Origin: a virus
Lineage: Duplodnaviria; Heunggongvirae; Uroviricota; Caudoviricetes
DNA: 18,284 nt
Strand: one strand, 5' to 3'
IMG/VR virus record: IMGVR_UViG_2671180878_000013
Span: 1-18,284 of that record
In this document: positions 1 to 10,933 of the stretch, one piece after another
How the letters are laid out: every line of letters starts with the position of its first letter
Numbering within the stretch: position 1 is the first letter of the stretch
Program-made: the position numbers and the translations under genes
Notes under the pieces: generated by a model
What the model was told of the DNA's origin: nothing
Databases searched by the model: none
What the model saw: only the letters and a program-made list of their open reading frames with translations

Positions 1-56
1 AAACCCTGGTTAAAATCCACACGATAAAAATGACAATGCAAGTATCTCATGCTGTT

Positions 57-81
57 GCCCGAACCTACTCGGGCTTTTTTT
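57..81 (+). terminator. Rho-independent terminator on the plus strand
   Basis: Perfect 6-bp stem gcccga/tcgggc with 6-nt loop, followed by a run of 7 T. It would stop plus-strand transcription entering from left of the window. Confidence 0.5.
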
Positions 82-399
82 GCATGTAAAAAGGCTCCTG
101 CGATGAGGGGCCTGGATATATGCCTAATCTCTGTATACAGCATGATGCCGGGTGCCTCCCGGTGAATTCTGCAATGACCAGACAGAATCCGCAACTTGCC
201 TATACAATACGCAACCAAACATCTGTCATTATGCCCCGCCGCCCAGGGGGATTCATCATGCAGGATTTTTTTAACAAACGCTCAGCATGTCAGGCAACAG
301 TCGACTACCTGAATTGTGAGGCATTTAACATTTCACTGTCCGGTGTCTTTCCTGTAATAAAAAGCCCGCAAAAGAGAGTCAGGGCAGATAAGTGTGGTG

Positions 400-476
400 T
401 GGCGCGTTGTACTGGATTCGAACCAGTGACCGATTGCTTAGAAGGCAATTGCTCTGTCCGGCTGAGCTAACAACGC
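400..476 (-). tRNA. argN: tRNA-Arg, anticodon UCU (reads AGA)
   Basis: Reverse complement folds as a cloverleaf: acceptor GCGTTGT/ACAACGC, anticodon stem ATTGC/GCAAT, loop CTTCTAA, T-arm ACTGG-TTCGAAT-CCAGT, encoded CCA. Symbol follows the Stx-phage ileZ-argN-argO convention and is tentative. Confidence 0.75.
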
Positions 477-489
477 ATGATGCTGATAA

Positions 490-566
490 TGGACCGCCAT
501 CGGGGACTTGAACCCCGCACAGCCAGCTTCGAAGGCTGACGCTCTATCCCGATGAGCTAATGGCGG
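490..566 (-). tRNA. argO: tRNA-Arg, anticodon UCG (reads CGA)
   Basis: Reverse complement folds as a cloverleaf: acceptor CCGCCAT/ATGGCGG, D-stem GCTC/GAGC, anticodon loop CTTCGAA, T-arm CGGGG-TTCAAGT-CCCCG, encoded CCA. Symbol is tentative. Confidence 0.65.
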
Positions 567-575
567 TATGTGATA

Positions 576-651
576 TGGTGGCCCTTGCTGGATTTGAACC
601 AGCGACCTGGCGATTATGAGTCGCTCGCTCTCACCACTGAGCTAAAGGGCC
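576..651 (-). tRNA. ileZ: tRNA-Ile2-like, anticodon CAU (lysidine type, reads AUA); Met cannot be excluded from the anticodon alone
   Basis: Reverse complement GGCCCTTTAGCTCAGTGGTGAGAGCGAGCGACTCATAATCGCCAGGTCGCTGGTTCAAATCCAGCAAGGGCCACCA closely resembles recalled E. coli ileX/ileY tRNA-Ile2. The 7-bp acceptor stem and encoded CCA are present. Confidence 0.7.
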
Positions 652-3521: not shown

Positions 3522-3744
3522 TATCGCTTCTCTCGGACTATAACCATGAAAAGAGACGCATTTCACTCAGTAAATCTGAGGATTTTATGCGCAAGAACAA
3601 TGACTTTTTCTGTCTGCCGTTTATACAATCTGAATTACGTCTGTTTTTTGAACACCGATAAATCAGCAAGCATTCTCAAATAAAGATTGCCTCCATAGTC
3701 CACATGGTGTAACACTATGTGTTATATAAAATGCAGAGGCAGGT

Positions 3745-4116
3745 ATGCGAATTTTCAAAAACGCCTGGTTTGAACGTTTCGCCCGAAAACATCGGATTTC
3801 CGATAAATCGCTGCGCAAAATCGTGGAGCAGGCCGATAAGGGGATCATATCCGCAAATTTGGGTAGTGGTGTCATTAAACAAAGATTAGCCCGAAGTGGT
3901 GGCGGAAAATCAGGCGGTTACCGGACAATAATTTTTTACCGCGTTGCAGAAAAAGCCTTTTTCATCTACGCATACGCAAAGAATGAACGAGAGAATATCA
4001 CTGCTATAGAGGAAAATGCTTTTCGAAAAGCCGCTCCCCATGTCCTCAATCTTACTGATGAACAGCTGGCACAATTGATTCAACAAGGCCAGTTCACGGA
4101 GGTACCCAATGAGTAA
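3745..4116 (+). CDS. higB: HigB-like (RelE/ParE superfamily) toxin
   Basis: 123-aa ORF with GGYRTIIFY...FFIYAYAKNEREN motif resembling HigB-type toxins. GAGG lies upstream of the ATG, and the gene overlaps the downstream antitoxin gene by 8 nt. Confidence 0.6.
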   Translation: MRIFKNAWFERFARKHRISDKSLRKIVEQADKGIISANLGSGVIKQRLARSGGGKSGGYRTIIFYRVAEKAFFIYAYAKNERENITAIEENAFRKAAPHVLNLTDEQLAQLIQQGQFTEVPNE

Positions 4117-4426
4117 AAATTACCGCAGTGATGCACTTGCATCTGTACATGAAATGATGGAGTCACTCCATGATATCGGTGCAATCACAAAACAAACTAT
4201 GCGCGAATTCGATGAAACTTGTCTTCAGCCTGCGCCGGTAATGTCTCCGGAAAGGATCCGTGCACTGCGAGAACGAGAGCATCTGTCTCAACCTGTTTTT
4301 GCCAGATACCTCAACGTCAGTAAAAACCTGATATCAGACTGGGAACGAGGAGTGAAACGCCCGGGAGGTGCAGCTCTTCGGCTTCTTTCAGTTGTCGAGA
4401 AAAACGGGATCCAGGTAATATCCTGA
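4109..4426 (+). CDS. higA: HigA-like HTH (XRE-family) antitoxin
   Basis: 105-aa ORF with a C-terminal HTH (LSQPVFARYLNVSKNLISDWERGVKRPGGAALRLL). The toxin-first, overlapping arrangement is typical of HigBA. Confidence 0.6.
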   Translation: MSKNYRSDALASVHEMMESLHDIGAITKQTMREFDETCLQPAPVMSPERIRALREREHLSQPVFARYLNVSKNLISDWERGVKRPGGAALRLLSVVEKNGIQVIS

Positions 4427-4499
4427 TATTCTAATACAACAAAACCCGCCGAAGCAGGTTAAGTGCGGGTGCGTTGAGGATGCCTGACACATCAGAGGT

Positions 4500-4521
4500 G
4501 GCGAGGGATTTCTCCCTCGCC
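4500..4521. repeat. Perfect hairpin ggcgaggga-tttc-tccctcgcc between the convergent higA and hok genes
   Basis: 9-bp perfect stem with 4-nt loop seen directly; no flanking T-run on either strand, so it is not a canonical intrinsic terminator. Confidence 0.5.
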
Positions 4522-4528
4522 AGGTCTC

Positions 4529-4684
4529 TTACTCCTCAGGTTCGTAAGCTGTGAAGACAGCGACCTCCGTCTGGCCGGTTCGGATTCGTACCTCGCAGAG
4601 GTCTTTCCTCGTTACCAGTGCCGTCACTATGACGGTTAAACAGATGACAATCAGGGCGATTAACATCGCCTTTTGCTGCTTCAT
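4529..4684 (-). CDS. hokD: Hok/Gef-family membrane toxin
   Basis: 51-aa product MKQQKAMLIALIVICLTVIVTALVTRKDLCEVRIRTGQTEVAVFTAYEPEE matches recalled HokD/RelF almost exactly. AAGGAG lies 9 nt upstream of the ATG at 4684. Confidence 0.85.
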   Translation of the reverse strand: MKQQKAMLIALIVICLTVIVTALVTRKDLCEVRIRTGQTEVAVFTAYEPEE

Positions 4685-4917
4685 AGCCTGCTTCTCCTTG
4701 CCTTTCGGCACGTAAGAGGCTAACCTACATGTGCAAAGCATGAAATTGGCCTCAGATTAATGTTAAGCGTCCTGCAAGACGCGTAATGTTAACTGGGGCT
4801 TTTCTCTGTCTGCCTTACGGCGGCATGCCCGAGGCAGACAGCCTCAAGCACCCGCAGCAATTCTACTTAACTCTTCTTTCCCCGCAAATCATTTTATCCC
4901 CGATGGTAATGTTCTCC

Positions 4918-4937
4918 CGATATGGGAATTCCCATAT
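4918..4937. repeat. 20-bp perfect palindrome GATATGGGAATTCCCATATC
   Basis: Seen directly; lies between the stop of the ORF6N gene and the hok leader. Candidate protein-binding site or processing structure. Confidence 0.6.
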
Positions 4938-4955
4938 CAAGGTTAACTCAATCGG

Positions 4956-5507
4956 TTAAAGCTCCATTAATTTTCCGGCCAGTTCATCTCGTGGCATTAC
5001 CAGCCATCCGCGCGATTTAAGCAAAGCCAGGGCTTCTTCAACCGTCACCAGCTGGCCAGGCGCATAACTTCGGATGAAGGCGGTTTTATCGTCACGGATC
5101 GCCAGGTGAAAATCGATATTCATTTTTCCCATAGCCCGCTCTTTCTCGTACTGGTTGAAGTAACTGTCTTCGAGTTTTTCGAATACTTCCCACGCCTGAT
5201 CGGTTTCGAGCATTTTTGCATGACGGGCTGCTCCGCGTTCTGTCCAGAGGATGAGAGTGCGGGTTTTGGGAGAAATTTTCACCTCATTTTGCGACTCGTT
5301 TAAAACTAGTCGCAAATTTTTGAGCTCATCACCAACAGCTTTAAAGAAGTGTTTTCCCTCAATAAATCGAGATTTATTTTCATGGTGATTCTGCTGTATA
5401 CGGATTGCTTCTGTTCCGTAAAGGCGGGCGAGTAACTCAGTTGTGATTACAGGAATCTGGTTATAAGTGACAGGGGAAAGGTTTTTGACAGTAACTTGAG
5501 TCGTCAT
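4956..5507 (-). CDS. ORF6N/KilA-N-type DNA-binding protein (antirepressor-like)
   Basis: 183-aa ORF with an N-terminal pattern (LARLYG...RFIEGKHFFK...TERGAARHAKMLETDQAWEVFEKL) characteristic of ORF6N domains. AGAGGG lies upstream of the ATG at 5507. Confidence 0.6.
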   Translation of the reverse strand: MTTQVTVKNLSPVTYNQIPVITTELLARLYGTEAIRIQQNHHENKSRFIEGKHFFKAVGDELKNLRLVLNESQNEVKISPKTRTLILWTERGAARHAKMLETDQAWEVFEKLEDSYFNQYEKERAMGKMNIDFHLAIRDDKTAFIRSYAPGQLVTVEEALALLKSRGWLVMPRDELAGKLMEL

Positions 5508-5671
5508 GATAACGCCCTCTGGTTGATGAATTTAACTATCACCACCTTCAGGTCTCAATCATCAGGTGGCGAGACGTACAGGGTTGAGACTACCGGATCA
5601 ACCAACCGGCCAGCCTTTCGGCTGCCCCATACGCCTCACCATAATTCAGATGTGCGTGCGCATACGACAAT

Positions 5672-5693
5672 AAAAAACACGCTCGCGGCGTGT
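5672..5693 (-). terminator. Candidate tR2-like Rho-independent terminator on the minus strand
   Basis: Stem acacgc/gcgtgt with 5-nt loop; on the minus strand it is followed by TTTTT. It sits between the replication/accessory genes and the ORF6N gene. Confidence 0.35.
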
Positions 5694-5778
5694 GTCTGTC
5701 GCGGTTGAATATCCGGGGTCTCAATCCCGACGGTCAACTCGACCGTGCGGTGAATATAGCCCCGGATTAGTAATTACG

Positions 5779-8394: not shown

Positions 8395-8917
8395 ACGAAC
8401 CCCTGGCAGATATTTGTTTATCTGCAAAGTAATATTGATACTGCTGACGATACGCATGCTTGAAAGCAATAGCTTTTTCTATAAGCTCGTCAGTCTCACG
8501 TTCCACAACAGATGGATCCGCAAAAAGCAGTCCGGACTCCACCACATCGCCATATTCTTTGTTTAACCCGGCGATCATGTACGTGATGCTTTTTCCGTCA
8601 CTAATTTCACGATACAACCTGAAATCATTAATCCGGATAGCCTCCATAATTGCAGGCACTAGCGCCGTGAACTTTTCACGCTTATCCCTGGTGTCGATAG
8701 CCTTCCAGCGTTCGAATATCTTCACTCGATTAACGCCAAGCGCTCGCTGATCAACCGCGCCACCTTCATCTGTGACACGCTGAACATCGATGTTCGGGCG
8801 CTCTTTCAAAACCCAGAATGCTTCAGTGATTAATATCGTCGCCTGCTCCTGTGTCATTCCTGGTCGACATATCCAGGCATCCAGAGCCTCACGAGCCTGT
8901 TCAGGAGTGATTTTCAT
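8366..8917 (-). CDS. Hypothetical early protein at the cII position (possibly YdaT-like)
   Basis: 183-aa ORF between the cro-like and initiator genes. The family assignment rests on position only and is weak. Confidence 0.4.
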   Translation of the reverse strand: MKITPEQAREALDAWICRPGMTQEQATILITEAFWVLKERPNIDVQRVTDEGGAVDQRALGVNRVKIFERWKAIDTRDKREKFTALVPAIMEAIRINDFRLYREISDGKSITYMIAGLNKEYGDVVESGLLFADPSVVERETDELIEKAIAFKHAYRQQYQYYFADKQISARGSYEYRCTTMG

Positions 8918-10874: not shown

Positions 10875-10933
10875 ATTCTGGTGACATTTGGCGGTATCAG
10901 TTTTACTCCGTGACTGCTCTGCCGCCCTTTTTT
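10875..10933 (+). ncRNA. dicF: DicF small RNA (ftsZ-targeting sRNA of the dicB operon)
   Basis: attctggtgacatttggcggtatcagttttactccgtgactgctctgccgccctttttt matches recalled E. coli DicF, including the terminator hairpin and T-run. Ends are approximate. Confidence 0.8.

Follow-up and report, generated by a model that had tools for sequence, protein, structure and literature searches.

A hok/mok/sok locus of the hokD allele and a HigBA2-like gene pair placed tail to tail in a Qin-like prophage

Prophage genes that converge on each other raise the question of whether they work as one unit or merely share a site. The question is posed here by a hok gene and a toxin-first gene pair facing it, together with the further question of whether this hok gene is under RNA control of its own. 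Both lie in an 18,284-nt stretch of viral DNA (Caudoviricetes; IMG/VR record IMGVR_UViG_2671180878_000013), which is referred to below as the window. A first-pass annotation of the bare sequence had described a HigBA-like pair opposite an independent hok module. The locus is very probably composed of two independent, canonical toxin-antitoxin (TA) modules arranged tail to tail, namely a complete hok/mok/sok system of the hokD allele and a pair of the HigBA2 type (Table 1). The analysis established which genes are present and what they are homologous to, the RNA elements with their predicted folds, the conservation of the locus and the independence of its modules.

The window is part of a lambdoid, Qin-like prophage of Shiga-toxin E. 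coli (STEC), and both modules are situated in its variable 'moron' region. They are flanked by replication and anti-repressor genes on one side and by DUF968/Q antiterminator genes on the other. The locus and both module types have already been catalogued; in sequenced STEC genomes of O26, O103 and O157 the locus is 100% identical. RefSeq names all three proteins (toxin, antitoxin and HokD), and its annotation under 8402 leader matches is 'none', leaving Sok, mok and the leader unannotated at prophage copies.

Table 1. Features of the two modules, in window coordinates
Feature	Position	Strand	Basis or remark
Imperfect 19-bp inverted repeat, TGTAACAC-TAT-GTGTTATA (equally 7+5+7)	3708-3726		Predicted; likely HigA-type operator
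Type II toxin gene, HigB2-like, 123 aa	3745-4116	+	PF06296, RelE/ParE superfamily; RefSeq 'type II TA system RelE/ParE family toxin'
Antitoxin gene, HigA2-like, 105 aa	4109-4426	+	C-terminal XRE-type HTH, residues ~48-94
Intrinsic terminator of hok mRNA	4436-4460	-	Hairpin AACCUGC-UUCG-GCGGGUU (4443-4460) and U-tract; terminator scan; homology to K-12 hokD 3' end
fbi (fold-back inhibition) element, CCUCAACGCACCC	4467-4479	-	hok 3' UTR; pairs with mRNA 5' end
hok (hokD allele), 51-aa membrane toxin	4529-4684	-	HOK_GEF PF01848, E = 2.7e-23; RefSeq hokD
mok reading frame, 70 aa	4529-4741	-	In-frame N-terminal extension of hok; ATG at 4741; SD GAGG 4750-4753
hok mRNA 5' leader	4685-4853	-	Rfam RF01794 'sok' model match, 4679-4853(-)
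Leader parts	tac 4842-4853; first hairpin 4806-4841; ucb 4795-4801; dcb 4716-4719		Further parts: Sok target, hok SD
Sok promoter	4698-4726	+	-35 TTGCCT 4698-4703; 17-nt spacer; -10 TAACCT 4721-4726
Sok antisense RNA gene, ~77 nt, predicted	4733-4809	+	Coordinates transferred from annotated K-12 sokC and sokB by alignment
hok promoter	4860-4888	-	-10 TAGAAT 4860-4865; -35-like TTGCGG 4882-4887

A complete set of hok/mok/sok elements

The hok gene lies on the strand opposite to the pair, as first described. It had been called a near-exact HokD homologue; the homology is confirmed, and the qualifier falls away, as the protein is 100% identical to K-12 HokD with its start at 4684. The upstream stretch, estimated earlier at about 270 nt, measures 271 nt (4685-4955) and ends at the next gene, an ORF6N anti-repressor (4956-5507, minus strand). 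The hok -10 aligns with TATAAT of K-12 hokC and TAGGAT of K-12 hokB and is conserved in 61 phage loci, and the transcription start was assigned by homology to G4853. A generic promoter/terminator scan found no hok, Sok or higBA promoter and no Sok terminator, so the hok and Sok promoters and the Sok terminator were placed by homology. Compared with the consensus, the hok -35 is weak, as is the Sok -10 (TAACCT).

A covariance-model search and RNA folding had been suggested for the upstream stretch. The search matched the Rfam hok/sok model RF01794 from end to end (117.3 bits with a gathering score of 59, E = 1.3e-26, model positions 1-157 of 157), with the model on the hok strand, where it also lies in K-12 hokC and hokB. 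The hairpin with a 9-bp stem noticed at first pass (CTGTCTGCC...GGCAGACAG) is real, being the first stem-loop of both the Rfam model and the minimum free energy (MFE) fold. The hok mRNA folds with z = -8.0, and the MFE structure predicted for its 418 nt pairs tac with fbi. With the 3' end shortened in silico by 50 nt, ucb is predicted to become the partner of the 5' end, and dcb that of the mok SD; this predicted tac/ucb and SD/dcb switch fits the hok mechanism summarised in PMC9841398.

Lack of a mok frame, or of a Sok-like antisense promoter or terminator, had been named as an observation that would speak against RNA control; all three are present. The mok frame starts at its own ATG, runs in frame with hok like mokC, and is 74% identical to K-12 MokC, which also shares its stop codon with hokC. 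Among 62 distinct hokD loci the ATG is invariant, and 54 of them have the frame in register at a length of 70 aa. The putative Sok promoter and terminator occupy positions homologous to those of sokC and sokB. In alignment, the promoter coincides with that of sokB (TTGCCG-N17-TAAGAT), and it is kept in 62 distinct loci as TTGCCT..TAACCT or TTGACC..TAATCT. The 5' part of Sok complements the start codon and SD of mok, its terminator comprises a long hairpin (4748-4800) followed by a U-rich tail, and the RNA folds at -31 kcal/mol (z = -5.6). Judged from sequence, a Sok gene with promoter and terminator covers the mok translation start. A literature search for 'sokD' returned no relevant paper. 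The full-length Rfam leader, the mok frame and the Sok promoter and terminator together bear out the proposal of an independent hok/sok-type RNA-regulated module.

The hok/mok/sok locus of plasmid R1 shares with the window a Hok/Gef-family peptide, a leader of the same covariance model, tac/fbi and ucb/dcb elements, a GAGG mok SD, and a Sok gene that runs antisense to the mok start, has its promoter within the leader and ends in a terminator hairpin. The R1 Sok promoter reads TTGCGC-N17-TATCCT (TTGCCT-N17-TAACCT in the window). In R1, mok is in the +1 frame relative to hok, whereas mok of the window is in frame and yields a 70-aa extended Hok. Furthermore, the second leader hairpin of the window, which is the Sok terminator, has an insertion of ~20 nt relative to the Rfam consensus, and the locus is carried by a prophage instead of a plasmid. 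K-12 hokC/mokC/sokC and hokB/mokB/sokB are collinear with the window from the -10 to the terminator, with similar Rfam scores (118 bits for hokC, 110 for hokB and 117 for the window). The window differs from them in its Hok allele (HokD) and its longer Sok hairpin; IS186 abuts K-12 hokC, whereas no IS element stands beside the window locus.

K-12 hokD (relF), which belongs to the relBE-hokD operon of the cryptic prophage Qin, encodes the identical 51-aa protein and sits in the same prophage surroundings, flanked by DUF968/ydfU and Q to one side and by dicC/dicA/DicF to the other. However, its DNA is 98-99% identical to the window from the SD to the terminator only (window ~4441-4701). Nothing is found upstream of the SD, where promoter, tac, ucb, mok start and Sok are absent, and the Rfam sok model gives no match to K-12 hokD, in line with the initial remark that sok and mok are missing there. 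In K-12, relE-relB abut hokD, and rem lies downstream where the window has higBA. Since K-12 hokD lacks the upstream parts and is abutted by relE-relB, the window is the un-rearranged form. A tblastn search with approximate RelB/RelE queries gave matches in only 2 of 80 phage hokD loci, a set that does not include the window, and these two are the sole K-12-like ones, without a BLAST match to the window hok leader. A passage of PMC12214031 citing Pedersen & Gerdes 1999 already describes K-12 hokD as a rearranged remnant. The window illustrates the un-rearranged hokD/mokD/sokD, with K-12 relBE-hokD as a truncated derivative; it adds little beyond this, hok/sok in prophages having been surveyed before.

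Toxicity, Sok turnover, mRNase activity and repression would be expected to follow the paradigms of R1 hok/sok and V. cholerae HigBA2. The weak promoter would give rise to a hok mRNA of ~415 nt (4853 to ~4436), held inert by tac/fbi end pairing and by ucb sequestering the mok SD. Slow 3' trimming would remove fbi, upon which the 5' end would pair with ucb and the mok SD would be displayed in the SD/dcb hairpin. Translation of Mok, here the N-terminally extended Hok frame, would then drive translation of Hok, presumably a membrane-depolarising peptide. As Sok would be short-lived, pair over the mok start region and trigger duplex decay, Hok would be produced only once Sok synthesis stops.

Alternatively, though this is rather doubtful, the hok locus may be structurally whole and biologically a silent passenger, like the K-12 chromosomal hok loci. 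The weak promoter hexamers are compatible with such a fate, as is HokD itself, which has no DNA-encoded Cys at aligned position 46; K-12 hokD mRNA is edited there to only ~6% (PMC12214031). A silent passenger is harder to reconcile with the retention of every regulatory element, and with a comparison of 61 distinct phage loci, in which the promoter and the mok ATG are conserved and the hairpins are kept by compensatory changes. Moreover, the over-expressed HokD coding sequence was toxic in a preprint assay, and hok is enriched in prophages (bioRxiv 10.1101/2025.08.07.668861). A complete, RNA-regulated hok/mok/sok module is the preferred reading. The activity of the window copy is nevertheless not guaranteed, because chromosomal hokA, hokB and hokC gave no post-segregational killing when tested in the literature.

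The HigBA2-like pair and its upstream palindrome

The second module had been described as a toxin-first pair of a RelE/ParE-like protein and an XRE-HTH protein with an 8-nt overlap, and this description stands (overlap 4109-4116). The toxin covers the whole PF06296 profile (E = 1.4e-47, profile positions 1-120 of 120), and the antitoxin matches HTH_3 at residues 50-94 (E = 1e-7). The label HigBA-like can be narrowed to HigBA2-like. The best PDB sequence matches of the toxin are HigB-2, and the antitoxin is matched best by HigA-2 of V. cholerae (E = 6.7e-8, residues 45-99 aligned to 39-93). An AF2 model of the toxin (pLDDT 78) is best matched by the HigB2 chain 8a0x_C (probability 1.00, TM 0.50/0.55), and the top Foldseek matches are all HigB2, with probabilities of 0.82-1.00 and TM scores of 0.40-0.56 that are modest at this pLDDT. 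The resemblance of toxin to HigB2 is a distant one (~24% identity, TM ~0.5).

Like the window pair, V. cholerae HigB2/HigA2 form a toxin-first operon with a RelE-fold toxin, a ~104-aa antitoxin bearing a C-terminal HTH, and one 7+5+7 inverted repeat lying across the -10, which in the window is a candidate. The window toxin model differs from HigB2 by two extra C-terminal helices. The four base-contacting residues of VcHigA2 (PMC11006873) are not conserved in the window antitoxin, and the operator sequence differs too. Kinship with relBE, the neighbour of hokD in K-12, was ruled out by the reversed gene order and the XRE-type HTH of the window antitoxin; relBE is antitoxin-first, with an RHH-type RelB and a PF05016-type RelE. 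By analogy with HigBA2, the RelE-fold toxin is presumably a ribosome-dependent mRNA endonuclease. The 105-aa antitoxin would neutralise it, and its C-terminal HTH dimer would repress transcription of both genes by binding the 19-bp inverted repeat that lies across the candidate -10.

The literature search yielded no paper on this E. coli pair. It is very unlikely that the pair is no growth-arresting TA and consists instead of transcription factors, or belongs to phage defence or anti-defence and merely shares the RelE fold. Such a view can draw on PHROG families 5869 and 2104, both of 'unknown function', and on the search for a tested PF06296 member close to the window toxin, which found none. 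The toxin has no match in NCBIfam or PADLOC either, and therefore no defence-system assignment was made. However, the nearest relatives of known structure are HigB2, which is a proven ribosome-dependent mRNase, and the antitoxin of HigB2. Order, size and frame overlap of the pair are also rigidly kept across phyla and in unrelated contexts: Salmonella, Halomonas and a cyanobacterium all have a toxin gene followed by a 105-aa HTH gene, with an overlap of 8 nt in the first two and of 23 nt in the third. Additionally, the toxin is frameshifted and the antitoxin intact in some genomes, which is how TA modules are expected to decay. These points favour a HigBA2-type TA pair.

An operator-like palindrome in front of higB had also been pointed out. 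It was recovered upstream of the toxin gene (Table 1), with 7 of 8 arm positions complementary. Lying 37 nt before the toxin ATG, it overlaps a candidate extended -10, TGtTATATA (3720-3728). The repeat search did not list it, the arms being too short for the settings, and it was checked by script. In a shuffle test of the 110-nt upstream region, 531 of 2000 dinucleotide shuffles (27%) were as good. The palindrome alone is not significant, and the idea that it is significant in itself was dropped on this result; conservation across distant homologues was relied on instead. A motif TGTnAYAC-TAW-GTRTTAYA stands 30-37 nt ahead of the toxin start codon in the homologues of O104:H4, Z1323, Salmonella and Halomonas, amid unrelated flanks. 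The footprinted V. cholerae HigA2 operator, TGTACGC-N5-GCGTACA (PMC11006873), has the same geometry and position. A role as operator is thus suggested by the conserved motif, although the conservation may partly be due to its being the promoter. With it, the PF06296/HTH family gains a conserved operator-like motif.

Independence of the modules and possible read-through

The two modules are independent. None of the 80 phage loci with identical HokD carries the pair within 2.5 kb, in O104:H4 a toxin gene of the doc family and a further small ORF separate the pair from hok, and strain Z1323 has the pair without hok. A single functional unit of pair and hok is ruled out by these observations. The convergent geometry noted at first pass is accurate; a functional unit it is not, the modules occurring apart elsewhere. 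The 80 loci were chosen by HokD protein identity, so purifying selection on hok is not claimed.

Coupling of the modules by transcription is unlikely, but several details of the junction would allow it. The higBA transcripts, having no efficient terminator of their own, would cross hok in antisense and Sok in sense orientation, up to the Sok terminator. In this way, the type II promoter would add an anti-hok/Sok-containing RNA or interfere with hok transcription. The junction of the modules would lie inside a shared hairpin (4443-4460), where higBA would have lost its terminator tail. This hairpin, that of the hok terminator, is the only one after higA and at the same time delimits the higBA module on its 3' side, as homology with the O104:H4 higA 3' flank reaches ~4460. 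On the plus strand it contains a C.A mismatch and is followed by no T-tract, whereas the homologous O104:H4 hairpin is perfect and followed by TTTTC; the U.G variant at position 4456 of the window occurs in no other of the 62 hokD sequences. Sok and higBA are on the same strand, and from 4427 to the Sok terminator the terminator scan predicted no terminator on the plus strand. If true, coupling would be a direct transcriptional link from a type II to a type I TA, in which a promoter derepressed upon antitoxin degradation sets the level of the anti-hok/Sok-containing RNA. However, since the modules are apart in most genomes, any coupling would be incidental to this arrangement. Moreover, hok/sok is self-sufficient in all studied systems, and Rho-dependent termination after the higA stop codon is possible. 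Two independent modules are thus the favoured reading of the locus. The hok leader is present in 4168 of 5426 complete E. coli genomes.

The hok/sok locus and its predicted transcripts

By its sequence, the locus is a textbook hok/mok/sok system beside a HigBA2-like type II toxin-antitoxin pair. The first-pass annotation, which had proposed a HigBA-like pair facing an independent hok/sok-type module, was essentially right in both description and interpretation. Both modules are of known kinds and can be found, already named, in public annotation; toxicity, Sok expression and repression are properties that we infer for them.

Features of the locus and its surroundings (positions in the window)
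Feature	Position	Strand	Remarks
AgvB	22-81	+	Rfam
STnc100	82-290	-	Rfam
Three tRNAs	403-651	-	Rfam; Arg, Arg, Ile per RefSeq record
Palindrome	3708-3726		TGTAACAC-TAT-GTGTTATA; upstream of toxin gene
Toxin ORF	3745-4116	+	123 aa
Antitoxin ORF	4109-4426	+	105 aa; 8-nt overlap with toxin ORF
hok mRNA terminator	4443-4460	-	hairpin + U-tract; terminator scan
hok	4529-4684	-	51 aa; 100% identical to K-12 HokD
Sok -35 (predicted)	4698-4703	+	TTGCCT; 17 nt upstream of TAACCT
Sok -10 (predicted)	4721-4726	+	TAACCT; 7 nt upstream of 4733
mok start	4741-4739	-	ATG, preceded by GAGG (4753-4750); 70-aa ORF in frame into hok
ORF6N anti-repressor gene	4956-5507	-	next gene beyond hok leader
C4 antisense RNA	5562-5646	-	Rfam
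isrK	5672-5746	-	Rfam
DicF	10876-10927	+	Rfam

The hok gene lies opposite to the pair as described, and its product is an exact rather than a "near-exact" HokD. The upstream stretch, estimated at about 270 nt, measures 271 nt up to the ORF6N gene, and the reported 9-bp-stem hairpin is present with arms at 4806-4814 and 4833-4841. A covariance-model search aligned 157 of 157 positions of Rfam RF01794 ("sok") with minus-strand 4679-4853 (117.3 bits; gathering score 59; E = 1.3e-26). This model is in truth the sense-strand hok mRNA leader, ending at the hok Shine-Dalgarno sequence (SD) and AUG. Its K-12 matches at hokC and hokB are on the strand of hok, with the annotated sokC and sokB on the opposite strand inside the interval. 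The window is collinear with both K-12 loci over the whole stretch between the -10 hexamer (TAGAAT here, TATAAT in hokC, TAGGAT in hokB) and the 3' end, including the 5' end GGGUGCUUGAGG. K-12 mokC has the same build as the mok frame, sharing its stop codon with hokC, and is 74% identical to it. The mok ATG shows no variation among the distinct loci, and 54 of these 62 have a 70-aa frame in phase with hok.

The fold of the 418-nt transcript (4853 to 4436) has z = -8.0, and no shuffle out of 100 equalled it. The 5' 12 nt (4842-4853) pair with 4467-4479 in the 3' UTR, a predicted tac/fbi interaction, while the mok SD pairs with GCCCC at 4795-4798 (ucb). Removal of the 3' 50 nt in silico shifts the 5' end to 4795-4801 and the mok SD to CCUC at 4716-4719 (dcb), the same refolding switch as described for R1 hok mRNA (PMC9841398).

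Sok is placed at 4733-4809 on the plus strand by using the hokC/hokB alignment to carry over the coordinates annotated for sokC and sokB, and the mok SD and start codon fall under it. At the equivalent promoter positions K-12 sokB has TTGCCG-N17-TAAGAT, and the 62 distinct hokD-type sequences have TTGCCT..TAACCT or TTGACC..TAATCT. The fold of the candidate RNA (-31 kcal/mol, z = -5.6) has a short 5' region and then a long hairpin, after which comes CUUUUCUC. The Sok promoter, the Sok terminator and the mok frame, on which the proposed independent module depended, are all found at the sequence level, and the full-length RF01794 match, Sok homology and tac/fbi fold likewise support that module. 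In RefSeq, 4168 of 5426 complete E. coli genomes contain matches to the leader/Sok region, at 8402 places in all, and the feature annotated under these matches is "none"; prophage hok copies systematically lack annotation of Sok, mok and the leader.

Several smaller features accompany the messenger. The second leader hairpin doubles as the Sok terminator. Relative to the Rfam consensus and K-12 hokC/hokB it is longer by a ~20-nt insertion (4768-4788), found in 57 of 62 hokD-type sequences. In a small hairpin just 5' of the hok SD, the two arms vary in a compensatory way (UGCC/GGCA versus GACC/GGUC). At hok codon 47 (4544-4546, minus strand), flanking CAG...CUG closes a 9-nt loop in the minimum free energy fold.

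K-12 hokD is ~98-99% identical to the window (5 mismatches in ~260 aligned positions), and the alignment is limited to the stretch between the hok SD (AGGAGAAGCAGGCUAUG, ~4701) and the U-tract of the terminator (~4441); its surroundings differ, with relE upstream and the rem side downstream. Since this homology starts only at the SD and Qin has no Rfam sok match, which bears out the remark that K-12 hokD lacks sok and mok, the window holds the complete locus and K-12 hokD is a rearranged remnant of such a locus. Component loss of K-12 hokD by genomic rearrangement already figures in the part of PMC12214031 citing Pedersen & Gerdes 1999. Among 80 IMG/VR contigs chosen for identical HokD, 78 carry the leader and 2 a K-12-like relBE junction. 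Enrichment of hok in prophages has been described in a 2025-26 preprint (bioRxiv 10.1101/2025.08.07.668861).

The HigBA2-like pair and its upstream palindrome

The toxin-first order and overlapping frames hold as first noted. Pfam PF06296 (RelE) aligns with the toxin from one end to the other (E = 1.4e-47), and the only significant PDB sequence matches of the toxin are V. cholerae HigB-2. Its AlphaFold2 model, built from 32 homologues (pLDDT 78, pTM 0.71), has a beta-alpha-alpha-beta4 core and two C-terminal helices; the top Foldseek matches are all HigB2 chains (prob up to 1.00, TM 0.50/0.55), with Mtb HigB1, ParE and RelE ranked far below. The antitoxin carries an XRE-type HTH at residues ~48-94 and matches HigA-2 best in the PDB (E = 6.7e-8), so that the HigBA-like assignment stands. 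The family (1418 proteins) is widespread and highly conserved, and homologues in Chromatiaceae, Halomonas and a cyanobacterium are ~60% identical. Moreover, a toxin followed by a 105-aa HTH protein in overlapping frames recurs in a Salmonella prophage, a Halomonas chromosome (8 nt in both) and a cyanobacterial contig (23 nt). These contexts are otherwise unrelated, and on comparative grounds such recurrence argues strongly that the two genes form a module. Several E. coli genomes (H43, H45-H48) have a toxin gene that is annotated as two CDS, with a match longer by 1 nt (732 versus 731 nt), and an intact antitoxin, which looks like a frameshift in the typical pattern of TA decay.

The operator-like palindrome proposed before the toxin gene is present but not significant by itself, 27% of shuffles being equally good. 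In the window, O104:H4, Z1323, Salmonella and Halomonas, the motif TGTnAYAC-TAW-GTRTTAYA lies 30-37 nt 5' of the toxin start codon, and O104:H4/window homology starts exactly at this motif. The footprinted V. cholerae HigA2 operator, TGTACGC-N5-GCGTACA (PMC11006873), is alike in geometry (the palindrome read as 7+5+7) and promoter-proximal position but differs in half-site sequence; by alignment, the base-contacting residues of VcHigA2 are also replaced by others in the window antitoxin. As the right arm overlaps a possible extended -10 (TGtTATATA, 3720-3728), the palindrome may be conserved as promoter and operator both.

Prophage setting and module junction

Positions 3600-4960 (1361 bases) are 100% identical to STEC chromosomes of O26:H11 and O103:H2, and 99.9% identical to O157:H7 chromosomes among the matches listed. 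The neighbourhood in O26:H11 str. 11368 is a lambdoid prophage, with a Q antiterminator, DUF968 and small ORFs on one flank and the ORF6N protein, replication genes, dicC and dicA on the other. The K-12 cryptic prophage Qin is parallel in order and orientation: ydfT(Q)-ydfU-rem-hokD-relE-relB ... dicC-dicA-dicF.

Among 5426 complete E. coli genomes, the pair occurs in 215 and the hok leader in 4168. A single system made of the pair and hok was rejected, as the modules occur apart: Z1323 has the pair without hok, a doc-family toxin gene and a small ORF separate the pair from hokD in O104:H4, and no pair lies within 2.5 kb of hokD in any of the 80 phage loci. TA modules of the relBE, higBA2-like, doc-family and hok/sok kinds are shuffled in this region, a hot spot for them.

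Homology to O104:H4 on the higA side reaches ~4460 and homology to K-12 on the hok side starts at ~4441; because these ranges overlap, a ~20-nt terminator hairpin is common to both modules. The junction lies inside this hairpin (4441-4460), the last segment homologous to the O104:H4 higA 3' flank. On the plus strand it contains a C.A mismatch, the T-tract present after the O104:H4 hairpin is missing, and the terminator scan predicted no plus-strand terminator before that of Sok. These features would permit higBA read-through, antisense to hok and on into Sok, an improbable event and the sole non-standard idea that the data allow. Among 62 hokD sequences, only the window has the U.G variant at 4456 (C.A on the plus strand).

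The C4 antisense RNA and isrK lie immediately upstream of the ORF6N gene; this arrangement resembles a P1 c4/ant-type or Gifsy-1 isrK-type immunity/anti-repressor control module. Additionally, a perfect 20-nt palindrome, GATATGGGAATTCCCATATC, without a U-tract, occupies 4919-4938 between the ORF6N stop codon (4956) and the hok promoter, and could bind a protein or insulate against read-through out of the early-right operon.
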